A DNA stretch of 64,000 bases from Eledone cirrhosa (Eukaryota). Positions 6,748 to 57,635 of the stretch are shown one piece after another; within the stretch, counting starts at the first letter, position 1; each line of letters opens with the position of its first letter. A program made the position numbers and the translations under genes. Under the pieces are notes generated by a model. It saw only the letters and a list, made by a program, of their open reading frames with translations. It had not been told where the DNA came from and did not search any database. Location: positions 189,224,001-189,288,000 of the forward strand of contig OZ024741.1 in the NCBI GenBank assembly GCA_964016885.1, written 5' to 3'.

Positions 6748-7878
6748 TATCATCACCATCATCATCATCTTCGTTTAACATCCATTTTCCACGCTAGCAT
6801 GGGTTAGACGGGAGTTGTCCCACTTGAGGCAAGGCTGGTCGAGTGACCGTGTCTCGCTCATATAGGACTATCTGGCAGGTTTTCTACGGCTGGATGCCCT
6901 TCCTAACACCAACCACATTTACAGTGTGGAACTGGGAACTTTTTACCGTGTTACCTACACGGCCACATTACAGCGTGGACTGTGTGTGTTTTTAGTCGTG
7001 ACACCTACACGATCTCGATCTCATTTTTTTGTGCTGTTGATGGGAGTGGAAGGATGGGGTAGGGGTAGTGGATTGGGGTGTATATTTGGTTAAGAGGTGC
7101 CTACTGACTGTAGGTTTCGCTTTGTACATAGGCAAGGCGGGTCTTCTGTATTGCTGCGTGGCGCCAAAGATCTTGGTCCAGAGACATTGTCTTAGAGAGA
7201 TGCAAGTGTGTAAGGTCGGAATTTATCAGATCGTCCCAGGTTTTTCTGGGTCTACCTACTCCGTAACTACCATCAATTTTGATCACCCTGCACTTTTTTA
7301 TGCAGCTGTCGTCTTTCATGCACATCACGTGACCATACCAACGTAGTCTTTTCTCAAGTAAACAGCATCTGATCCCTCTTATTCCTAATTTCTCACTTAG
7401 TTCATTTATGCTTTGCCGGTTACGTATATTACTATTACACATGCAACGGAGCATGCATGCTTCGTTCCTTTCCAGTCTACGCAGGTCCTCTGCACGTAAT
7501 GCCCATGTCTCACGGCCATGTAGCATTGCTGCTCGTATACAGGCATCATACAATCTGCCTTTCATTTTTAGAGAGAAACCTTTTGTGGCCAACAGCGGTA
7601 TAAGCTCTCTGAACTTTTTCCATCACGTTCTGACTCTGGCTACTGTACTTTCAGAACACCCTCCACCACTGCTGATTTCGTCACCCAGGTAACGGAAAGT
7701 GTCTACTATTTCTATAGAACCATCTGGGCAATAGAAGGAGCTAGTATCCTTTGGACACTTGCTACTTATTGCACCTGAGCATTGGCCACATATGAAGTCT
7801 ACGTTCTTAGATAGTTTACCTGTGATCCCACTACATCTTTTATGTACCCATACTTTGCATTTGGGACATAAAATGGAA
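6748..7878 (-). mobile_element. RTE family A 5'-truncated copy
   Basis: ORF 7101-7592 is homologous to the C-terminus of 54465-57635; 3'UTR and (GAT)n tail present. Confidence 0.9.
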
Positions 7879-7885
7879 TATATAT

Positions 7886-7952
<67 letters not shown>

Positions 7953-7964
7953 TAGAGAGAATTA

Positions 7965-8041
<77 letters not shown>

Positions 8042-8191
8042 CTGTCCTATTAATATTATAAGAACCCTTTCCAACTAAAGCTTCAAAGCTTCAGATTATT
8101 CAGGCACATTAATGAACCCATACAAGAATGGAAAAGTCTATAAGAAATGATGAAAATGAGATATATACATATTTACAAATCCATACACACA

Positions 8192-8222
<31 letters not shown>

Positions 8223-8230
<8 letters not shown>

Positions 8231-9077
8231 GACGTAAAATAAGAAAATATTTTTTTAAAAAAATTAAAAAAAAAATTTTTTTCTTACTTAAATTTTCACT
8301 CCAACTAATTAGTTTCTGCAATGGGAGTGAAAATTTAAGTAAGAAAAAAATTTTTTTTAAATTTTTTTAAAAAAATATTTTCTTATTTTACGTCCTTTAT
8401 ATTATTGTTCTGCATTCTCCTGCATTGAACCACCTAGGTACTATGACATAACCTGTGTATTTGCTGGCATGGGCGTGCATCTGTGCGCTTATGTTAGTTG
8501 ATATATTAAATTATCTATATTTATCTCCAAATCACTGATTTGTCGAGCAAACTTGTCAAAAGCACTTCTAAAAAAATTTTTTTTGGGGTGTTAGTAGGCG
8601 TCAGTCATCTTACCATCCCATTCCTTCTAACTAGCCTCTGTGTCACGTGATTGATTCTTTAGAATCGGCCATTTGACTTGAAGCAGTGAGAATTTCGGTA
8701 CATAGAATCCAGTCCTCGCAAGCTGTTCGATCTACCGAATTATTATTATTTTTATATGAGCCGCCAGTGTCCGCGCATTGCCTGGAGACTTAACTGAGAA
8801 TAGACTTCCTGATGACGCAGTGAATTCTCGACAGTTGGATTACATAACTGTCTTTATCCCATTGCAGAAACTAATTAGTTGGAGTGAAAATTTAAGTAAG
8901 AAAAAAATTTTTTTTAAATTTTTTTAAAAAAATATTTTCTTATTTTACGTCCTTTATATTATTGTTCTGCATTCTCCTGCATTGAACCACCTAGGTACTA
9001 TGACATAACCTGTGTATTTGCTGGCATGGGCGTGCATCTGTGCGCTTATGTTAGTTGATATATTAAATTATCTATAT
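8223..9077 (+). mobile_element. Non-coding hammerhead-bearing element (retrozyme / non-autonomous Penelope-like): 557-nt unit, 197-nt direct repeat, inverted 5' piece
   Basis: 8324-8520 repeats at 8881-9077 (offset 557); 8223-8326 is the inverse of ~8857-8959; (TA)n on both flanks. Confidence 0.8.
8804..8885 (+). ncRNA. Type I hammerhead ribozyme
   Basis: ACTTC-CTGATGA-[stem II GCAGTG/CATTGC with inner GACAGTT/AACTGTC]-GAAA-CTAATTAG-TT^GGAGT; stem III ACTAATTAGT is palindromic. Confidence 0.75.
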
Positions 9078-9278
9078 ATATATATATATATATTTATACA
9101 CACATACACACATATTTATATATATATAGAGATTTTGAGTTTATGTTGGTTGTATACCAACACCTCAGTATGCAGGCTGGAGCACTCGACGAAGTGCACA
9201 GGTTGGTTTGGTTACTCCGGAGTAGTGTAAAATAAAGTTAAATAAAAGTCAAATGATTAAAATTTAGCTTCGTTTATT

Positions 9279-9333
9279 ACTGCTATATATATTTCAGTGA
9301 CAGCCATCTTTGGCTGTGACCTCTTCAGGCAGT
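9279..9333 (-). ncRNA. Type I hammerhead ribozyme
   Basis: ACTGC-CTGAAGA-GGTCACAGCCA-AAGA-TGGCTGTCACT-GAAA-TATATA-TA^GCAGT. Confidence 0.8.
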
Positions 9334-9681
9334 TTGAATTAGTATGGTATAGACAAATACATATGTTGTTTAGGTGTATAATATTGTCAATACTCTGATA
9401 TGCCCAGTTCCTTGTTGGGTTGTTAATTCACTGAGGAACTGGAGTCATATATATATATATATATATTTATGTAATAGACAACACAATATAATTATTCTGT
9501 TAACCAAGGTTTTGTGAAGTTAGACGATTCTAACAGAAATCTTTATTATATTGTGTTGTTTATTACATAATTTATAGCTCTGTACTATACATAGAGCACA
9601 CTTCTTTCATTTACCTTTTCTACGGAAATACTGAACATATATTTATATGTGTGTGTGTGTGTGTATTTATAAATATATATA

Positions 9682-10902
9682 TCTTCATCATCATTTTACG
9701 TCCGCTTTTCCGAGCGTGGGACGAGCCCTCTTCATCACAGCATCACTCCATATCACGGTCCTTTGTCGTCTCCTCTCTGAGCTTCAGCGATCTGAGGTCA
9801 GCTCTCATCACCTCTGCCGATGTCTCACTACCATGCAGCATTGCGTATCTCACACAGGCATCATACAACTGACCTTTCGTTCATAGGAAGAAACCCTTCG
9901 TTGTCAACAGAGGAAGTAGCTCCCTAAACTTTTTCCGTCCAGCCCTTATTCTAGTTACTATGGCCTTGGAGCATCCTCCTCCTTTGCTAATTTAATCACC
10001 TGGATATCGGAAGCTGTCAACCACCTCTATAGATCCTACCTACACTTGAAAAATGTGTCTATTACTGACACATCTACTATCAGTTTTTCTTGAACATCTA
10101 CTACATACAAAGTTTTCCTTTCCTGTTAGTTTGCCTGCTATCTCACTACACCTCTTGTGTACCCAAGATTTGCATTGTGTACATTTTATAGAGTTTATGC
10201 CAACTCCTTTTCTACATATTGAGCATGGCAATTTCCCTGATGGAATCAGAGCTTTGTCCTCTTTCCTACTTATCAATACTTTAGTCTTTACTAGGTTCAC
10301 TCTCTGTCCCTCCGATTCCAACTGCTGTTTCCACAGCTGGAATTTATTCTCTAACTCCTCTACTTATTCTACTATAAGTACCAGATCGTTAACATAGAGA
10401 AGTTCCCATGACAGCCAGTCTTAAACTTCTCAGTTATGACTTGGAGAACTATAATGAACACAAGTGGGCTGAGGTCCGAACCCTGATGAACTCCTACTTG
10501 TATCTGGAATTCTTCACGAAACTCCATTCTTACACTCACTTTACTGACAGCACCTCTGTACATAGCTTGCACTGTCCTCACAAGCCATTCCTCAACACCT
10601 AGTTTCCTTAGGGACCACCAGATGCCAGATCTGGGTACTCTATCAAAGGCCTTCTCTAGGTCAACAAAAGATAAATATAGTGACGTATTCTTCTCTTAGA
10701 ACCTCTCTTGTAGTTGTCTCACTAAGAAGAGGGCATCTGTTGTACTTTTCCTGGTCACAAAATCAAACTGCATCTCATCTAATTTTACTTTTTCTCTAAT
10801 TAGTTGTGTTAGCACTCCTGTCACTTTCATAATCTGATCCATCAGTTTATGCCCCTATAATTGCTCCTCTCCAGAGCATCCCCTTCTCTTTTGTAACAAT
10901 TG
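9682..10902 (-). mobile_element. Degraded RTE family B fragment
   Basis: RT and PHD-like pieces: GVHQGSDLSPL, CSICRKGVGINSIKCTQCKSWVHKRC. Confidence 0.85.
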
Positions 10903-29828: not shown

Positions 29829-32189
29829 ATCATCATCATCATCATCATCAACGTTTAACGTCCGTGTTCCACGCTTGCATGGGTTTGGACGGGGGTAGTC
29901 CCACTTGAGGCAAGAGTGATTGTCTTGCTCGCATAGGACTGTCTGGCAGGTTTTCTACAGTTGGATGCCCTTCCTAACACCAACCACATTTACAGTGTGG
30001 GTCTGGGAGGTTTTTACCGTGTTGCCTACACGGCCACATTACAGCGTGGACTGTGTGTTTTTTTGTCGTGACACCTACACGATCTCATTTGTTTCGGCCT
30101 CGATGGCGCGGCACCAACATAACTTTACATAGAACGGGGTGGTGTGGATCGGGTGGGGGTGGGGGTGGTGGGACGGGGTGTATTTTGTTAGAGATGCCTA
30201 CTGGCTGGAGTAGGTTTTACTATATATTTAGGTAAGGCGGGTCTTCTCTGTTACTGAGTACCGCCAAAGGTCTCGGTCCAGTGACATTGTCTTGGAGAGG
30301 TGTAAGTGTGTGATGTCGGAGTTTATCAGCTCGTCCCAGGTTTTTCTAGGTCTGCCTATTCCGTGACTACCGTCTATCTTTATTGCCCTGCACTTTGTTA
30401 TACAGCTATCGACTTTCATGCGCATCACGTGTCCATACCAACGTAGCCTTCTCTCGAGTAAACAACAACATCTGATCCCTCTTATCTCTAATTTATTCCT
30501 TAGTTCGTTTATGCTTTGCCGTTCACGTATATTACTGTTACACATCCAGCGGAGCATGCAAGCTTCGTTCCTCTCTAGTCTGCGTATATCCTCTGCACAC
30601 AATGCCCAGGTCTCACTGCCATGCAGCATTGCTGTTCGTATGCAGGCATCGTACAACCTGCCTTTCATTTTTAGTGAGAACCCTTTAGCAGCTAATAGTG
30701 GTATAAGCTCTCTGAACTTTTTCCAACCAGTTCTGACTCTAGCTACAGTACTTTCAGAGCACCCTCCCCCACTGCTGATTTTATCGCCCAGGTAACGGAA
30801 GCTGTCCACTATTTCTATAGAACCCTCTGCGCAATTGAAAGAGCTAGTAGTTTGTGGGCACTTGCTGCTACTTATTGCACCAGAGCACCGGCCACATGTA
30901 AAATCTATGTTCTTAGTTAGCTTACCTGTGATCCCACTACATCTTTTATGCACCCATACTTTGCATTTAGGACATAAAATGGAGTTTCTACCTACGCCTT
31001 TCCTACACACCGAGCACGACCATTTCCCAGAAGGGACCGCCGCCTTGTTTTCTTTCCTACAAACTAGTACTTTGGTCTTAGCCAGGTTAATTTTAAGTCC
31101 TTTTGACTCTAGGCCGTGCTTCCATGTTTGGAATTTCTTCTCTAGCTCGGCCATTGATTCCGCTATGAGTGTCAGGTCGTCTGCGTATAGGAGTTCCCAT
31201 GGGCAGCCTGTCTTGAACTCCTCTGTTATAGCCTGAAGGGCAATAATAAATAGTAGTGGACTGAGAACAGAGCCCTGATGGACGCCGACTTTTACGCTAA
31301 ACTCTTCACTATATTCGTTGTTAATTCTAACCTTGCTGACTGTTTCTTTATACATGGCTTGTATAGCCCTCACAAGCCATTCGTCAACGCCTAGTTTTCT
31401 AAGAGCCCACCAGATAATGGAGCGGGGGACTCTGTCGAAGGCTTTCTCCAAGTCGACAAAAGCTAAGTAGAGGGGTTTACCTTTAGCTAGGTACTTCTCC
31501 TGTAGTTGTCGTATTATGAAAAGAGCGTCTGTGGTACTTTTGCCTGACACAAACCCGAACTGCATTTCATCTAGGTCAATTCTCTCTCTGATTAGTTGCG
31601 CTATTACTCTTTCCGTGACCTTCATGACCTGGTCGATTAATTTAATGCCTCTATAGTTACTCCTATCTAGGGCGTCTCCTTTACCCTTATAACAGTTAAC
31701 GATGATGCTGCTATGCCAGTCCTTCGGAACAACCCCGTTCTGTACGACTTGGTTAACTATGCGGGTGACCATGGTGTGTCCCACCGTGCCAGATGCCTTC
31801 AGCATCTCAGCAACTATTTCCGAAGGCCCAGCCGCCTTACCAGTCTTCATATCCTTGATTGCCTTACTTATTATACTCCCCTCGACTAACACTGCTGGTC
31901 CCTCTATTGGGTCGATATGGGGGAGACTGCCTTTCTCCCAATTATTCTCCTCATTTAGAAGCCTTTCATAGTGACACTTCCAAGCTACCTTCTTATCAGC
32001 GTCGGTGATGGCAAGTGTGCCATCGTCGTTTAGTACACACTTCTCCCCGACAATATCACGGTTTTCCTTGACGCATTGCCTAGCAATCCTGAACACCTCA
32101 CGTTTTTGGTCATCGCGTTGTAGAACATGCTTGAACTTTCTTTCCTCAGCTTCCCTTCTTGCTAAGTACACTTGTCTCCTAGCTTCCCT
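29829..32189 (-). mobile_element. Young 5'-truncated RTE family A copy (open 647-aa RT frame at 30228-32171)
   Basis: Near-identical to 55677-58033, with about five amino-acid differences seen; YADD intact. Confidence 0.95.
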
Positions 32190-32324
32190 ATATACATTTA
32201 GGTTTGTTGGTTCACCACTGGATAGAACTGGCGGCCGACCTGATTAGAAACTGCTAAATGTGTGGCCGCCTTCTTATCGCTGCCTTTTCAGCCCCATGGA
32301 TTATATTCCTTTGTTAAATTTCGA

Positions 32325-33398: not shown

Positions 33399-36300
33399 AT
33401 CACCACTGCCACCACCACCACTGTCACCACCACCACTGCCACCACCACCACTGTCACCACCACCACTGCCACCACCACCACTGTCACCATCACCACTGTC
33501 ACCACCACCACTGTCACCACCACCACTGTCACCACCACCACTGTCACCATCACCACTGTCACCACCACCACTGTCACCACCACCACTGTCACCATCACCA
33601 TTGTCACCACCACCACTGTCACCACCACCACTGTCACCACCACCACTGTCACCACCACCACTGTCACCACCACCACTGTCACCATCACCACTGTCACCAC
33701 CACCACTGTCACCACCACCACTGTCACCATCACCATTGTCACCACCACCACTGTCACCACCACCACTGTCACCATCACCACTGTCACCACCACCACTGCC
33801 ACCATCACCACTGTCACCACCACCACTGTCACCACCACCACTGCCACCACCACCACTGTCACCATCACCACTGTCACCACCACCACTGTCACCACCACCA
33901 CTGTCACCACCACCACTGTCACCACCACCACTGTCACCATCACCACTGTCACCACCACCACTGTCACCATCACCACTGTCACCACCACCACTGTCACCAC
34001 CACCACTGTCACCACCACCACTGTCACCATCACCACTGCCACCATCACCACTGTCACCACCACCACTGTCACCACCACCACTGTCACCACCACCACTGTC
34101 ACCATCACCACTGTCACCACCACCACTGTCACCACCACCACTGTCACCATCACCACTGTCACCACCACCACTGTCACCACCACCACTGTCACCATCACCA
34201 CTGTCACCACCACCACCATCACCACCACCACTGTCACCACCACCACTGTCACCACCACCACTGTCACCATCACCACTGTCACCACCACCACTGTCACCAC
34301 CACCACTGTCACCATCACCACTGTCACCACCACCACCATCACCACCACCACTGTCACCACCACCACTGTCACCACCACCACTGTCACCATCACCACTGTC
34401 ACCACCACCACTGTCACCACCACCACTGTCACCATCACCACTGTCACCACCACCACTGTCACCACCACCACTGTCACCACCACCACTGTCACCACCACCA
34501 CTGTCACCACCACCACTGTCACCACCACCACTGTCACCACCACCACTGTCACCACCACCACTGTCACCATCACCACTGCCACCATCACCACTGTCACCAC
34601 CACCACTGTCACCACCACCACTGTCACCACCACCACTGTCACCATCACCACTGTCACCATCACCACCGTCACCACCACCACTGTCACCACCACCACTGTC
34701 ACCATCACCACTGTCACCATCACCACTGTCACCATCACCACTGTCACCACCACCACTGTCACCACCACCACTGTCACCACCACCACTGTCACCACCACCA
34801 CTGTCACCACCACCACTGTCACCACCACTACTGTCACCACCACTACTGTCACCACCACCACTGTCACCACCACCACTGTCACCATCACCACTGTCACCAC
34901 CACCACTGTCACCACCACCACTGTCACCACCACCACTGTCACCACCACCACTGTCACCACCACCACTGTCACCACCACCACTGTCACCACCACCACTGTC
35001 ACCATCACCACTGCCACCATCACCACTGTCACCACCACCACTGTCACCACCATCACTGTCACCACCACCACTGTCACCATCACCACTGTCACCATCACCA
35101 CCGTCACCACCACCACTGTCACCACCACCACTGTCACCATCACCACTGTCACCATCACCACTGTCACCATCACCACTGTCACCACCACCACTGTCACCAC
35201 CACCACTGTCACCACCACCACTGTCACCACCACCACTGTCACCACCACCACTGTCACCACCACTACTGTCACCACCACTACTGTCACCACCACCACTGTC
35301 ACCACCACCACTGTCACCACCACTACTGTCACCACCACCACTGTCACCACCACCACTGTCACCACCACCACTGTCACCATCACCACTGTCACCACCACCA
35401 CTGTCACCACCACCACTGTCACCACCACCACTGTCACCACCACCACTGTCACCATCACCACTGTCACCATCACCACTGTCACCACCACCACTGTCACCAC
35501 CACCACTGTCACCACCACCACTGTCACCACCACCACTGTCACCATCACCACTGTCACCACCACCACTGTCACCACCACCACTGTCACCATCACCACTGTC
35601 ACCATCACCACTGTCACCACCACCACTGTCACCACCACCACTGTCACCACCACCACTGTCACCACCACCACTGTCACCACCACCACTGTCACCATCACCA
35701 CTGTCACCACCACCACCACTGTCACCATCACCACTGTCACCACCACCACTGTCACCACCACCACTGTCACCATCACCACTGTCACCACCACCACCACTGT
35801 CACCATCACCACTGTCACCACCACCACTGTCACCATCACCACTGTCACCATCACCACCATCACCACTGTCACCATCACCACTGTCACCACCACCACTGTC
35901 ACCACCACCACTGTCACCACCACCACTGTCACCACCACCACTGTCACCACCACCACTGTCACCACCACCACTGTCACCACCACCACTGTCACCACCACCA
36001 CTGTCACCACCACCACTGTCACCACCACCACTGCCACCACCACCACTGTCACCACCACCACTGTCACCACCACCACTGTCACCACCACCACTGTCACCAT
36101 CACCACTGTCACCACCACCACTGTCACCACCACCACCACTGCCACAATCACCACTGTCACCACCACCACTGTCACCACCACCACTGTCACCACCACCACT
36201 GCCACCACCACCACTGTCACCACCACCACTGTCACCACCACCACTGTCACCACCACCACTGTCACCACCACCACTGTCACCACCACCACTGTCACCACCG

Positions 36301-39300
36301 CCACTGTCACCACCACCACTGTCACCATCACCACTGTCACCACCACCACTGTCACCACCACCACTGTCACCACCACCACTGTCACCACCACCACTGTCAC
36401 CACCACCACTGTCACCACCACCACTGTCACCACCACCACTGTCACCACCACCACTGCCACCACCACCACTGTCACCATCACCACTGTCACCACCACCACT
36501 GTCACCACCACCACTGTCACCACCACCACTGTCACCACCACCACTGTCACCATCACCACTGTCACCACCACCACTGTCACCATCACCACTGTCACCACCA
36601 CCACTGTCACCACCACCACTGTCACCACCACCACTGTCACCATCACCACTGCCACCATCACCACTGTCACCACCACCACTGTCACCACCACCACTGTCAC
36701 CACCACCACTGTCACCATCACCACTGTCACCACCACCACTGTCACCACCACCACTGTCACCATCACCACTGTCACCACCACCACTGTCACCACCACCACT
36801 GTCACCATCACCACTGTCACCACCACCACCATCACCACCACCACTGTCACCACCACCACTGTCACCACCACCACTGTCACCATCACCACTGTCACCACCA
36901 CCACTGTCACCACCACCACTGTCACCATCACCACTGTCACCACCACCACCATCACCACCACCACTGTCACCACCACCACTGTCACCACCACCACTGTCAC
37001 CATCACCACTGTCACCACCACCACTGTCACCACCACCACTGTCACCATCACCACTGTCACCACCACCACTGTCACCACCACCACTGTCACCACCACCACT
37101 GTCACCACCACCACTGTCACCACCACCACTGTCACCACCACCACTGTCACCACCACCACTGTCACCACCACCACTGTCACCATCACCACTGCCACCATCA
37201 CCACTGTCACCACCACCACTGTCACCACCACCACTGTCACCACCACCACTGTCACCATCACCACTGTCACCATCACCACCGTCACCACCACCACTGTCAC
37301 CACCACCACTGTCACCATCACCACTGTCACCATCACCACTGTCACCATCACCACTGTCACCACCACCACTGTCACCACCACCACTGTCACCACCACCACT
37401 GTCACCACCACCACTGTCACCACCACCACTGTCACCACCACTACTGTCACCACCACTACTGTCACCACCACCACTGTCACCACCACCACTGTCACCACCA
37501 CTACTGTCACCACCACCACTGTCACCACCACCACTGTCACCACCACCACTGTCACCATCACCACTGTCACCACCACCACTGTCACCACCACCACTGTCAC
37601 CACCACCACTGTCACCACCACCACTGTCACCATCACCACTGTCACCATCACCACTGTCACCACCACCACTGTCACCACCACCACTGTCACCACCACCACT
37701 GTCACCACCACCACTGTCACCATCACCACTGTCACCACCACCACTGTCACCACCACCACTGTCACCATCACCACTGTCACCATCACCACTGTCACCACCA
37801 CCACTGTCACCACCACCACTGTCACCACCACCACTGTCACCACCACCACTGTCACCACCACCACTGTCACCATCACCACTGTCACCACCACCACCACTGT
37901 CACCATCACCACTGTCACCACCACCACTGTCACCACCACCACTGTCACCATCACCACTGTCACCACCACCACCACTGTCACCATCACCACTGTCACCACC
38001 ACCACTGTCACCATCACCACTGTCACCATCACCACCATCACCACTGTCACCATCACCACTGTCACCATCACCACTGTCACCACCACCACTGTCACCACCA
38101 CCACTGTCACCACCACCACTGTCACCACCACCACTGTCACCACCACCACTGTCACCACCACCACTGTCACCACCACCACTGTCACCACCACCACTGTCAC
38201 CACCACCACTGCCACCACCACCACTGTCACCACCACCACTGTCACCACCACCACTGTCACCACCACCACTGTCACCATCACCACTGTCACCACCACCACT
38301 GTCACCACCACCACCACTGCCACAATCACCACTGTCACCACCACCACTGTCACCACCACCACTGTCACCACCACCACTGCCACCACCACCACTGTCACCA
38401 CCACCACTGTCACCACCACCACTGTCACCACCACCAATGTCACCACCACCACTGTCACCACCACCACTGTCACCACCACCACTGTCACCACCACCACTGT
38501 CACCACCACCACTGTCACCACCACCACTGTCACCACCACCACTGTCACCACCACCACTGTCACCACCACTGTCACCACCACCACTGTCACCACCACCACT
38601 GTCACCACCACCACTGCCACCACCACCACTGTCACCATCACCACTGTCACCACCACCACTGTCACCACCACCACTGTCACCATCACCACTGTCACCACCA
38701 CCACCATCACCACCACCACTGTCACCACCACCACTGTCACCACCACCACTGTCACCATCACCACTGTCACCACCACCACTGTCACCACCACCACTGTCAC
38801 CATCACCACTGTCACCACCACCACCATCACCACCACCACTGTCACCACCACCACTGTCACCACCACCACTGTCACCATCACCACTGTCACCACCACCACT
38901 GTCACCACCACCACTGTCACCATCACCACTGTCACCACCACCACTGTCACCACCACCACTGTCACCACCACCACTGTCACCACCACCACTGTCACCACCA
39001 CCACTGTCACCACCACCACTGTCACCACCACCACTGTCACCACCACCACTGTCACCATCACCACTGCCACCATCACCACTGTCACCACCACCACTGTCAC
39101 CACCACCACTGTCACCACCACCACTGTCACCATCACCACTGTCACCATCACCACCGTCACCACCACCACTGTCACCACCACCACTGTCACCATCACCACT
39201 GTCACCATCACCACTGTCACCATCACCACTGTCACCACCACCACTGTCACCACCACCACTGTCACCACCACCACTGTCACCACCACCACTGTCACCACCA

Positions 39301-40712
39301 CCACTGTCACCACCACTACTGTCACCACCACTACTGTCACCACCACCACTGTCACCACCACCACTGTCACCACCACTACTGTCACCACCACCACTGTCAC
39401 CACCACCACTGTCACCACCACCACTGTCACCATCACCACTGTCACCACCACCACTGTCACCACCACCACTGTCACCACCACCACTGTCACCACCACCACT
39501 GTCACCATCACCACTGTCACCATCACCACTGTCACCACCACCACTGTCACCACCACCACTGTCACCACCACCACTGTCACCACCACCACTGTCACCATCA
39601 CCACTGTCACCACCACCACTGTCACCACCACCACTGTCACCATCACCACTGTCACCATCACCACTGTCACCGCCACCACTGTCACCACCACCACTGTCAC
39701 CACCACCACTGTCACCACCACCACTGTCACCACCACCACTGTCACCATCACCACTGTCACCACCACCACCACTGTCACCATCACCACTGTCACCACCACC
39801 ACTGTCACCACCACCACTGTCACCATCACCACTGTCACCACCACCACCACTGTCACCATCACCACTATCACCACCACCACTGTCACCATCACCACTGTCA
39901 CCATCACCACCATCACCACTGTCACCATCACCACTGTCACCATCACCACTGTCACCACCACCACTGTCACCACCACCACTGTCACCACCACCACTGTCAC
40001 CACCACCACTGTCACCACCACCACTGTCACCACCACCACTGTCACCACCACCACTGTCACCACCACCACTGTCACCACCACCACTGCCACCACCACCACT
40101 GTCACCACCACCACTGTCACCACCACCACTGTCACCACCACCACTGTCACCATCACCACTGTCACCACCACCACTGTCACCACCACCACCACTGCCACAA
40201 TCACCACTGTCACCACCACCACTGTCACCACCACCACTGTCACCACCACCACTGCCACCACCACCACTGTCACCACCACCACTGTCACCACCACCACTGT
40301 CACCACCACCACTGTCACCACCACCACTGTCACCACCACCACTGTCACCACCACCACTGTCACCACCACCACTGTCACCACCACCACTGTCACCACCACC
40401 ACTGTCACCACCACTGTCACCACCACCACTGTCACCACCACCACTGTCACCACCACCACTGCCACCACCACCACTGTCACCATCACCACTGTCACCACCA
40501 CCACTGTCACCACCACCACTGTCACCACCACCACTGTCACCATCACCACTGTCACCACCACCACTGTCACCATCACCACTGTCACCACCACCACTGTCAC
40601 CACCACCACTGCCACCACCACCACTGTCACCACCACCACCACTGTCACCACCACCACTGTCACCACCACCACTGCCACCACCACCACTGTCACCATCACC
40701 ACTGTCACCACC
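33399..40712. repeat. 7.3-kb minisatellite, 15-bp unit CCACCACCACTGTCA (~490 units) with higher-order repeats
   Basis: Read directly. Rare variants recur at spacings of 2178 and 1875 bp. Confidence 0.97.
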
Positions 40713-40999
40713 ATAGCTAGCGTCACTATAATCACCAGCCATTAATCACTGCTTGTTATTGCCATATTCATTATGTCCATATTTTCTTTCGTCAGTAACC
40801 TTCCTCTCTTCTCTACATCCCTCCTCTCCATCATCATCATCTGTGTCATCCTAATTGTTTTCATTATCAATATCATTAATGTTAATCATATAACAACATT
40901 TGGCTTATACCTAATTTCATACACACACACACATATATACATGTATGTATGTATATATATGAAAGTCCCTGGTTTAAAACATTAGTAGAGTATATATAC

Positions 41000-54355: not shown

Positions 54356-54464
54356 GCCTATACTATCGCTTGCCTGGTTGCCTTTCGATATATGATGGAT
54401 GGATGGACTGCGGAATCCTGGAGAGTGGAGGTGAGAGAGAGAAAAATCTGGACGCTCAGCGACA

Positions 54465-57400
54465 ATGCCAAAGATAAAGACAAATTCACCTCTTGGACGA
54501 GAATGCGAGCACTCCTCATTGTTTCGACCGCGGACGGCTAACATAACCCCATCGCCCCCCGCCCCTCACCGCCCCCAACCCCCAAACGCAATCCAAAACT
54601 TCAGAGTTGGTACCATAAATGTAGGCACCCTAAAGGGTCGCGCTAACGAGGTTGTAGAAATGCTTGAACGTAAGGAGGTCGATGTTTGTTGTATTCAAGA
54701 GACCAGGTGGAGGGGTGGGTCTGCTAGGTTCATTGAGGGTAAAAAACGATGTTATAAGCTTTTCTGGGTGGGAAACGACGATGGGCTGGGTGGAGTAGGA
54801 ATCATGGTAGCAGAAAAGTGGGCAGATAAGATAATAGACGTAAATAGAGTGAACGACAGAATAATTAAAATACGACTTGTCCTCAATAGAACTACGGTGA
54901 CAGTAATATCTGCGTACGCACCCCAATCCGGACTGCCCGGCACTATAAAAGACAGATTCTATGAGACACTGATGCTAACTACCTCCCAAATATCCGACAG
55001 TGACTATATAATTATCGCAGGCGACCTAAATGGTCACGTTGGACAACATTGTGACGGCTACGACGAAATCCATGGAGGCTATGGGTTTGGTACTAGAAAT
55101 GAGGAAGGCTCCAGAATCCTGGAATTCTGTGATGCAAATAACCTAACTATCTGTAACACTAACTTCAAAAAACGTGACAATCACCTGATCACCTATAGAT
55201 CCGGGGAACACACAAGCCAGGTAGATTATATCCTTACCAGAAGACGTGACAGAGTGTCTGTTGTTAACACTAAATCCCTCCCCCATGAAGAATGCACCTC
55301 CCAACATAGACTGATAATTAGCGACCTCATAGTCAGGACGAGACGTACTCGACAACAGAAGAGGACTATCCTCAGGAGGAAAATATGGAAGCTAAAGGAC
55401 CCCACAGCCAGGAATAAATTTCAAAGCATATTACTTGATGCTTTCGACAGTAAGGAAGAACATTTAGAGTCGGACAATATAGAGGGAGAGTGGGAATTTC
55501 TGAAAGCAAACCTGCTGTTGGCGACAGACGAAGTCTGTGGCTGGAGCAGGCCTGTAGGCAGGAGGAGAGTAACATGGTGGTGGAACAGTAAGGTGGAGGG
55601 GTCAATTAAGGCCAAAAAGCAGGCTTGGAAAGTATGGCGGGATGGGGGAAGTAGAGAGGACTATCAAGTGGCCAGGAGGGAAGCTAGGAGACAAGTGTAC
55701 TTAGCAAGAAGGGAAGCTGAGGAAAGAAAGTTCAAGCATGTTCTACAACGCGATGACCAAAAACGTGAGGTGTTCAGGATTGCTAGGCAATGCGTCAAGG
55801 AAAACCGTGATATTGTCGGGGAGAAGTGTGTACTAAACGACGATGGCACACTTGCCATCACCGACGCTGATAAGAAGGTAGCTTGGAAGTGTCACTATGA
55901 AAGGCTACTAAATGAGGAGAATAATTGGGAGAAAGGCAGTCTCCCCCATATCGACCCAATAGAGGGACCAGCAGTGTTAGTCGAGGGGAGTATAATAAGT
56001 AAGGCAATCAAGGATATGAAGACGGGTAAGGCGGCTGGGCCTTCGGAAATAGTTGCTGAGATGCTGAAGGCATCTGGCACGGTGGGACACACCATGGTCA
56101 CCCGCATAGTTAACCAAGTCGTACAGAATGGGGTTGTTCCGAAGGACTGGCATAGCAGCATCATCGTTAACTGTTATAAGGGTAAAGGAGACGCCCTAGA
56201 TAGGAGTAACTATAGAGGCATTAAATTAATCGACCAGGTCATGAAGGTCACGGAAAAAGTAATAGCGCAACTAATCAGAGAGAGAATTGACCTAGATGAA
56301 ATGCAGTTCGGGTTTGTGTCAGGCAAAAGTACCACAGACGCTCTTTTCATAGTACGACAACTACAGGAGAAGTACCTAGCTAAAGGTAAACCCCTCTACT
56401 TAGCTTTTGTCGACTTGGAGAAAGCCTTCGACAGAGTCCCCCGCTCCATTATCTGGTGGGCTCTTAGAAAACTAGGCGTTGACGAATGGCTTGTGAGGGC
56501 TATACAAGCCATGTATAAAGAAACAGTCAGCAAGGTTAGAATTAACAACGAATATAGTGAAGAGTTTAGCGTAAAAGTTGGCGTCCATCAGGGCTCTGTT
56601 CTCAGCCCACTACTATTTATTATTGCCCTTCAGGCTATAACAGAGGAGTTCAAGACAGGTTGCCCATGGGAACTCCTATACGCAGACGACCTGACACTCA
56701 TAGCGGAATCAATGGCCGAGCTAGAGAAGAAATTCCAAACATGGAAGCACGGCCTAGAGTCAAAAGGACTTAAAATTAACCTGGCTAAGACCAAAGTACT
56801 AGTTTGTAGGAAAGAAAACAAGGCGGCGGTCCCTTCTGGGAAATGGTCGTGCTCGGTGTGTAGGAAAGGCGTAGGTAGAAACTCCATTTTATGTCCTAAA
56901 TGCAAAGTATGGGTGCATAAAAGATGTAGTGGGATCACAGGTAAGCTAACTAAGAACATAGATTTTACATGTGGCCGGTGCTCTGGTGCAATAAGTAGCA
57001 GCAAGTGCCCACAAACTACTAGCTCTTTCAATTGCGCAGAGGGTTCTATAGAAATAGTGGACAGCTTCCGTTACCTGGGCGATAAAGTCAGCAGTGGGGG
57101 AGGGTGCTCTGAAAGTACTGTAGCTAGAGTCAGAACTGGTTGGAAAAAGTTCAGAGAGCTTATACCACTATTAGCTGCTAAAGGGTTCTCACTAAAAATG
57201 AAAGGCAGGTTGTACGATGCCTGCATACGAACAGCAATGCTGCATGGCAGTGAGACCTGGGCATTGTGTGCAGAGGATATACGCAGACTAGAGAGGAACG
57301 AAGCTTGCATGCTCCGCTGGATGTGTAACAGTAATATACGTGAACGGCAAAGCATAAACGAACTAAGGAAAAAATTAGAGATAAGAGGGATCAGATGTTG

Positions 57401-57635
57401 TTTACTCGAGAGAAGGCTACGTTGGTATGGACACGTGATGCGCATGAAAGTCGATAGCTGTATAACAAAGTGCAGGGCAATAAAGATAGACGGTAGTCAT
57501 GGAATAGGCAGACCTAGAAAAACCTGGGACGAGCTGATAAACTCCGACATCACACACTTACACCTCTCCAAGACAATGTCACTGGACCGAGACCTTTGGC
57601 GGTACTCAGTAACAGAGAAGACCCGCCTTACCTAA
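54465..57635 (+). CDS. RTE-type LINE protein, 1056 aa: AP endonuclease, reverse transcriptase, embedded PHD-like finger
   Basis: GTINVGTL, IQETRW, SAYAPQ, AGDLNGH, QVDYIL, SQH; NYRGIKL, DLEKAFD, HQGSVLSP, YADD (56679-56690), FRYLG; uninterrupted frame. Confidence 0.96.
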   Translation: MPKIKTNSPLGRECEHSSLFRPRTANITPSPPAPHRPQPPNAIQNFRVGTINVGTLKGRANEVVEMLERKEVDVCCIQETRWRGGSARFIEGKKRCYKLFWVGNDDGLGGVGIMVAEKWADKIIDVNRVNDRIIKIRLVLNRTTVTVISAYAPQSGLPGTIKDRFYETLMLTTSQISDSDYIIIAGDLNGHVGQHCDGYDEIHGGYGFGTRNEEGSRILEFCDANNLTICNTNFKKRDNHLITYRSGEHTSQVDYILTRRRDRVSVVNTKSLPHEECTSQHRLIISDLIVRTRRTRQQKRTILRRKIWKLKDPTARNKFQSILLDAFDSKEEHLESDNIEGEWEFLKANLLLATDEVCGWSRPVGRRRVTWWWNSKVEGSIKAKKQAWKVWRDGGSREDYQVARREARRQVYLARREAEERKFKHVLQRDDQKREVFRIARQCVKENRDIVGEKCVLNDDGTLAITDADKKVAWKCHYERLLNEENNWEKGSLPHIDPIEGPAVLVEGSIISKAIKDMKTGKAAGPSEIVAEMLKASGTVGHTMVTRIVNQVVQNGVVPKDWHSSIIVNCYKGKGDALDRSNYRGIKLIDQVMKVTEKVIAQLIRERIDLDEMQFGFVSGKSTTDALFIVRQLQEKYLAKGKPLYLAFVDLEKAFDRVPRSIIWWALRKLGVDEWLVRAIQAMYKETVSKVRINNEYSEEFSVKVGVHQGSVLSPLLFIIALQAITEEFKTGCPWELLYADDLTLIAESMAELEKKFQTWKHGLESKGLKINLAKTKVLVCRKENKAAVPSGKWSCSVCRKGVGRNSILCPKCKVWVHKRCSGITGKLTKNIDFTCGRCSGAISSSKCPQTTSSFNCAEGSIEIVDSFRYLGDKVSSGGGCSESTVARVRTGWKKFRELIPLLAAKGFSLKMKGRLYDACIRTAMLHGSETWALCAEDIRRLERNEACMLRWMCNSNIRERQSINELRKKLEIRGIRCCLLERRLRWYGHVMRMKVDSCITKCRAIKIDGSHGIGRPRKTWDELINSDITHLHLSKTMSLDRDLWRYSVTEKTRLT

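Follow-up and report, generated by a model that had tools for sequence, protein, structure and literature searches.

Non-LTR retrozymes have been described as non-coding hammerhead repeats in tandem which occur as circular transcripts and probably owe their mobility to Penelope-like elements (PMC7229834; 10.64898/2026.07.22.740005). In the parts covered of the animal literature (Cervera and de la Pena, 2020, PMC7229834; PMC7761336; Li, Clavereau and Pollet, 2026, 10.64898/2026.07.22.740005), they share with the repeat described here one type I hammerhead per tandem unit, the absence of coding capacity, a GC content below 50%, copies ranging from monomers to multimers, co-occurrence with Penelope-like elements and a proposed rolling-circle mobilisation. 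Our unit of 557 nt exceeds the 150-450 nt given in one of these sources (PMC7229834) and falls within the 51-972 nt given in another (10.64898/2026.07.22.740005). In Xenopus, 24 of 57 retrozyme families matched a transposable element, mostly Penelope-like elements, the kinship not being universal (10.64898/2026.07.22.740005). The same parts of these papers contain no mapping of insertion ends, no two-site rule and no within-array haplotypes. The present unit differs in that no parent terminal repeat (pLTR) was found for it, and both its cleavage and its circles are putative.

Two groups of coding elements provide the other points of comparison. The EN+ Penelope-like elements Neptune, Nematis and Naiad (Craig et al., 2021, PMC8557442, in the parts covered) resemble our repeat in their partial tandems, inverted 5'-truncated arm, (TA)n bias and one-end tail, the tail often being present at one end only, as well as in the existence of non-autonomous multi-copy head-to-tail derivatives (Chlamys). 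In contrast, our unit lacks an RT or GIY-YIG frame, its tail is three times longer and its one-end rule is counted as strict. The Poseidon element PAc of the green anole (Frangieh et al., 2024, PMC11167929, likewise in part) has two internal RT start sites downstream of the hammerhead, which bracket the Penelope tail, and is also alike in its AT-rich targets, in the cutting and extension of both strands and in a predicted dimer. PAc is coding, with a tail of 30-40 nt and starts that are not homologous to the target, whereas our repeat has no coding capacity, its two sites lie 118 nt from each other and both carry a TATAT that matches (TA)n. Insertion by PAc hammerhead mutants was unaffected, and unprocessed RNA was the main substrate (PMC11167929).

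The locus lies in a window of 64,000 nt from Eledone cirrhosa (assembly GCA_964016885.1, contig OZ024741.1, positions 189,224,001 to 189,288,000), that is, the whole stretch of DNA analysed. On balance, we read it as one insertion of a young non-coding hammerhead repeat, likely made by a borrowed Penelope-like RT/endonuclease at both cut ends from a probably circular RNA. Its features are as follows, unit positions being numbered from the predicted cleavage site:

8191..8227, no strand: left (TA)n target tract, adjoining the A end of the inverted arm
8223..8326, minus strand: inverted arm, unit positions 534-557 then 1-79, terminating at fixed site A
8324..8326, no strand: GGA microhomology joining the 5' ends of both arms
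8324..8880, plus strand: full 557-nt non-coding unit
8398..8402, plus strand: site A, TATAT, unit 75-79, internal in this copy; second copy at 8955-8959
8456..8505, plus strand: long hairpin shortly upstream of site B, conserved in sister families with compensatory changes
8516..8520, plus strand: site B, TATAT, unit 193-197, internal in the first round
8804..8885, plus strand: type I hammerhead motif, core 8809-8815 and 8867-8870, predicted cut after 8880
8881..9077, plus strand: next round of the unit, 197 nt, terminating at fixed site B (9073-9077)
9078..9095, no strand: right (TA)n target tract

Positions 8324-8520 recur without a mismatch at 8881-9077, a spacing of 557 nt; the match spans exactly 197 nt and does not extend backwards. 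The inverted arm (8223-8326) is the reverse complement of 8857-8959 at 98% identity, and the GGA at 8324-8326 is common to both arms. The longest stop-free stretch in a dimer of the 557-nt unit (GC 35.9%) spans 55 codons, and no RT plus GIY-YIG endonuclease frame is present among the frames of that dimer. The arrangement which the earlier note had described, namely one 557-nt unit followed by 197 nt of the next, an inverted hammerhead-half copy joined by GGA, no meaningful open reading frame and (TA)n on both flanks, is therefore borne out down to its coordinates. The element works like a Penelope-like element, yet is not classed as an autonomous one; that it is a non-autonomous, Penelope-mobilised retrozyme we hold to be very probable. 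In all, it is a non-LTR retrozyme of a known kind with a Penelope-style mode of insertion, its cleavage being predicted and its circles putative.

Other features of the window include 71%-identical fragments of another repeat on either side of the microsatellite region (7500-7721 and 9815-10036) and a 7.3-kb array of 487 copies of a 15-bp unit (33401-40713, 94% matches), in which both strands have frames free of stops for about 2,450-2,535 codons. Two LINE-type frames are also found, one of 1066 aa with endonuclease, RT and PHD finger (54435-57632, plus strand) and one of 671 aa with RT and PHD finger (30231-32243, minus strand).

The hammerhead motif and its family

The predicted hammerhead consists of stem I (8804-8808 with 8881-8885), a core (CUGAUGA at 8809-8815 and GAAA at 8867-8870), a 6-bp stem II (8817-8822 with 8860-8865) with a C-A mismatch closure and an inner hairpin, and a stem III made by the palindrome ACUAAUUAGU at 8870-8879, with the cut predicted after U8880. 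An A>G change at 8820, giving a G-U pair in stem II, occurs in the window copy alone among the arms of the top set. The C-A closure of stem II may make the ribozyme less active, as may the U at the cleavage position. An Rfam search, as proposed in the earlier note, returned no hammerhead match at E<=1 (7500-9800) or E<=10 (8780-8890). The minimum-energy fold of the monomer does not contain the active core (z -1.9); in the dimer fold, two hammerhead copies pair through the stem III palindrome. Dimeric animal hammerheads that pair in like manner have been described (PMC7229834; PMC7761336, both in part), among them the dimeric Penelope-like hammerheads of Lunse et al. (2017), as given in PMC7761336. 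Eight of nine predicted Xenopus retrozymes gave no in vitro cleavage, according to the part covered of 10.64898/2026.07.22.740005.

Covariation was examined in 12 hammerheads picked from 82 distinct strings to span the families. Paired cells amounted to 94.4%, compared with 35-48% in slid controls; stem II pair 18-65 takes four pair types and pair 21-62 is altered on both sides. The invariance of the core in this alignment is by construction, the rows having been chosen by core, and is not counted as evidence. Two stem I double changes were rejected as covariation since they were produced by an insertion on both strands in one family. As the rows represent few lineages, covariation lends support to the predicted fold rather than a probability. 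The hammerhead assignment follows from the core letters, the covariation in sister families and the dimer fold, and the type I motif originally placed at 8804-8885, with its cut predicted after 8880, stands by its core and its covarying stem II. Eight sequences retain the hairpin upstream of site B, and 3 of its 20 pairs show double changes. The window and the flanks of many loci contain at least eight other families of minimal hammerhead motifs, many of which have a palindromic stem III; two of these families match within the window.

The source genome (3.0 Gb) was searched with the unit, and 40 scored places among 556 candidates gave 235 matches, the full-length ones listed being 95-100% identical and nearly all 98-100%. 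The unit family is thus young, multi-copy and non-coding, and the view that the insertion is recent and one of many agrees with these near-identical copies. An end-blind set, made up of 39 fetched places and the window locus, was picked by unit similarity and mapped on a multimer of the unit. The longest arm measures 11.08 units (L042), and L047 consists of 9.17 and 4.81 units back to back. Exact end junctions number 295 for A and 538 for B in the genome (reversed-pattern controls, 0), which suggests, when scaled from the pairing on contig C1, a lower bound of about 650 insertions with exact ends; hammerhead motif matches number 319 in 94 loci.

The target is (TA)n on both sides, at least 8 TA bases coming next in 159 of 169 arms, and target-site duplications are not readable inside such tracts. 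In single-arm insertions, TATATATA lies at most 30 nt from the 5' end in 33 of 46 cases, compared with 88 of 2,132 background windows. At L049, L116, L120, L135 and L155, young copies were observed within the (TA)n tail of an older relative or next to it, so insertions create targets for later insertions. Sister families of 525 and 529 nt have 1,782 and 1,855 first-look candidates, and relatives align to the unit at 70-78%. The sister families and further relatives at L192-L241, L116:1-547 and L060:5798-6448 have the hammerhead palindrome and both end sites in common with it. Several sister or relative families appear to have been recently active.

Two fixed 3' ends and the pairing of arms

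In the end-blind set of 40 loci, 61 arms have at least 97% identity and at least 100 nt, and every one of them terminates at A (33) or B (28); this count excludes older copies and an internal piece of 73 nt in L061. In the hammerhead sense, arms end at unit 79-83 (A) or 196-201 (B, true end 197), after TATAT and before (TA)n. Every inverted insertion of this set pairs A with B (21/21). The same holds for the 33 inverted pairs in the first 60 of 103 C1 loci, alongside which 20 single B and 9 single A arms were found; these loci were chosen by their ends, a selection that in part ensures termination at A or B but does not bear on the pairing. Exact junctions over the whole of C1 give 30 A/B inverted pairs, no A/A, no B/B and one direct B/B neighbour. 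The sister families end at 61/179 (525 nt) and 62/177 (529 nt), with sites 118 and 115 nt apart. Their inverted junctions are A+B in 29 of 36 cases and have one arm at neither site in 7, with no B+B, the queries having been anchored on B in such a way that A+A is not visible. The one-A-one-B rule is strict in the young family; this diagnostic feature, a pair of fixed 3' ends with one per arm, is absent from the earlier note. With alternative 3' ends, an inverted 5'-truncated arm and a microsatellite target, the family carries the insertion signature of Penelope-like elements, and the partial-tandem and inverted insertion of Penelope type that the earlier note had proposed is supported by the A/B ends in (TA)n and the A+B pairs. 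A literature search limited to titles and abstract openings found no count of such a pairing rule or of array haplotypes for a retrozyme, although one may be in print.

How the two arms arise can be judged from their extents. A single cDNA could fold back and be resolved by the endonuclease at the second site, and the Penelope-like tail has been ascribed to endonuclease resolution (PMC8557442, in part). Five of 33 junctions are near-perfect palindromes and 49 of 60 pairs are compatible with nesting, as befits such a route, but in 11 of the 60 neither arm fits inside the other, so folding back is not the general route; moreover, A and B both occur as ends of single-arm insertions. As a general rule fold-back is contradicted, and we give it hardly any probability as the source of the inverted insertions, though it may hold for the palindromic subset. 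Because of the 11 non-nestable pairs, two independent cDNAs, primed at A and at B, are the likely origin of the arms. Overlaps at the arm junctions are mostly 0-8 nt.

Two cDNAs that start from both target ends and are joined head to head by microhomology are also produced in LINE-1 twin priming, where one primer uses the poly(A) tail, the other site is variable and there is hardly any overlap between the arms. In our family, by contrast, both sites are fixed and the arms cover the same sequence for several rounds. A LINE-1-style collision model, in which the 5' end of one arm would lie at the start site of the other, was rejected since the 5' positions do not fit.

5' ends, array haplotypes and the RNA template

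The earlier note had proposed that copies begin at the cleavage site, and in part this stands. As a family rule it fails: tabulated against the predicted site, the 5' ends of arms from the first 60 C1 loci are scattered round the unit, 78 of 95 lying elsewhere. Only 5 arms start exactly at the site (the window copy, L091, both arms of L094 and L107; a sixth match, L068, was left out as lying outside the element), as against 345 read-throughs, and four other positions in the unit reach this score in the same exact-start test, one of them exceeding it. What remains is a weak enrichment, with 17 of 95 5' ends at -3 to +20 compared with 4.7 expected from exposure (about 3.6-fold, P 9e-6), A/T runs blurring BLAST ends near the cleavage site in the young family. 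In the sister families, 6 ends lie near the site versus 3.0 expected (P 0.08) and 7 versus 1.8 (P 0.003); exact starts come to one doubtful case in 51 and one in 39, the latter turning out to be a read-through that carries one additional base. Run-off from a cut RNA may account for a minority of cDNAs, and the start of the window copy at the cleavage site is an exception rather than a family signature. The further proposal of reverse transcription more than once around fared better, the predicted cleavage junction being crossed repeatedly in the 345 read-throughs.

Both arms stop at the same unit position in L094, L102, L103, L114 and L127, which have near-perfect palindromic junctions. These 5 of 33 pairs compare with about 0.4 expected, and the L094 pair stops at the cleavage site. 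The arms of L102 measure 534 and 93 nt, which places their stops in different rounds.

Variants within arrays were compared in 87 loci, at sites covered by at least three units and outside masked homopolymer tracts. Of these variants, 45 were fixed in all units of a locus, 4 were mosaic and 64 were singletons, whereas 200 shuffles across loci left 0.7 fixed on average and 4 at most. In two-arm loci the variant was common to both arms in 30 cases and confined to one arm in 13 of 43. With one haplotype per insertion, the arrays resemble copies made from a single unit in one step rather than products of stepwise duplication. Many of the fixed variants are lineages common to several loci, which uniform multimer transcripts would transmit too. 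Variants fixed at just one of the 87 loci nevertheless fill whole arrays, namely 150A in 6 of 6 units of L038 and 387T in 5 of 5 units of L062, and a monomer-to-multimer step is needed to account for them. Misassembly of near-identical arrays could inflate either class of variant.

Unequal crossing-over or slippage might have turned short insertions into satellite arrays at a later time, with gene conversion making the units uniform, as was proposed for retrozyme arrays (10.64898/2026.07.22.740005, in part), and arrays L042, L047 and L053 do carry a few periodic homopolymer variants. Later expansion predicts nested shared variants, however, and 4 mosaic variants were seen against 64 singletons; inverted arms also carry one haplotype over many units, as in L047, where 59T is present in 15 of 15 units of the locus. 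We consider this history very unlikely.

A stronger competitor retains the same element and two-site priming and takes as template an uncleaved linear multimer, or jumps between linear monomers, with circles minor and cutting rare. Its support comes from the surplus of 5' ends just downstream of the cleavage site, the arm pairs that stop at the same position (those of L094 at the cleavage site itself) and two loci with internal variation: in L031, 218C marks the third unit from the 3' end in both arms, and in L047, 457A is mosaic, one arm carrying it in units 3 and 5 and the other in unit 4. L031, L047 and the five same-stop pairs argue for linear or multimeric templates some of the time. A linear copy cannot exceed its source array, though, and yet the private variants of L038 and L062 fill theirs; furthermore, among minority variants, 1 of 29 (that of L031) is present in register in both arms. 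As the general explanation a linear template seems to us unlikely, and a monomeric circle is rather probable as the usual one.

Coding Penelope-like elements and the proposed mechanism

The same genome harbours a very young coding Penelope-like family (L142-L153, e.g. L144:3709-7495; L153 is a tandem with a spacing of 4843), for which a flank fragment gave 106 scored matches at 97-100%, 56 of them with the same score. Its 777-aa open frame has an RT match and, on visual inspection, a GIY-YIG-like motif preceded by CxxxxCxxC, which is the Neptune/Nematis arrangement (PMC8557442, in part). Its terminal repeat contains a U3/A8-variant hammerhead with a palindromic stem III of its own, and the element ends in microsatellite at +110/113 or +152 after that hammerhead, about 40 nt apart, with one of each end in 7 of 7 inverted insertions (12 loci). 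An apparent 5' cluster of this family at L144:2808 was discarded as an artefact of the query's own truncation. The young coding family is a candidate helper for the 557-nt element.

The unit might belong to a coding Penelope-like element as its terminal repeat (pLTR), of which truncated copies persist. Its parts come in the same order as in the terminal repeat of the coding family, the hammerhead being followed by two ends into (TA)n, and the genome holds many Penelope-like families (31,463 and 10,596 first-look candidates), few of which were compared with the unit. BLAST of the unit against that terminal repeat (12 loci) found no similarity, the layout alone being alike, and BLAST against 30 GIY-YIG loci and 12 RT loci found no coding partner; the single match near a GIY-YIG gene (L179) was rejected as a sister copy in (TA)n. 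A pattern for the same palindrome with a shorter stem II gave 49 matches, of which the 20 fetched were all family members with no coding parent, and these, like L179, were cut off by (TA)n or the locus edge. At over 100 loci the unit has no other continuation than itself, and the layout is not LTR-internal-LTR. The possibility, raised in the earlier note, that the unit is simply the terminal repeat of a coding element thus found no such element among the coding loci compared, and we judge it highly improbable.

In the mechanism that we propose, read-through array transcripts would self-cleave as hammerhead dimers via the palindromic stem III, and the cleaved monomers would be ligated to circles. 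A dimeric enzyme would cut (TA)n, one subunit priming at A and the other at B, aided by 4-5 nt of TATAT homology. Each cDNA would extend around the template over 0.05 to 11 units, after which microhomology would join its end to that of the other cDNA. In the window copy, the second pass of the B-primed cDNA would have ended at the cleavage site, owing to a cut template or a chance stop. More tentatively, the arrays could be a record of rolling-circle reverse transcription in which a dimeric enzyme of Penelope type, its subunits obliged to use two different sites, copied one monomeric ribozyme circle. Each insertion would then be a clone of one RNA, and the 118-nt spacing with its hairpin would form a compact cis-signal for multi-round (TA)n integration.

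In the literature covered, rolling-circle copying of retrozyme circles by Penelope-like enzymes has been proposed and not demonstrated, and the origin of inverted and tandem Penelope-like insertions is stated as open. The present family offers countable footprints of these processes, namely a strict A+B rule in common with a coding element and clonal arrays, and the young, intact candidate enzyme in the same genome makes the model testable in a published in vitro assay.
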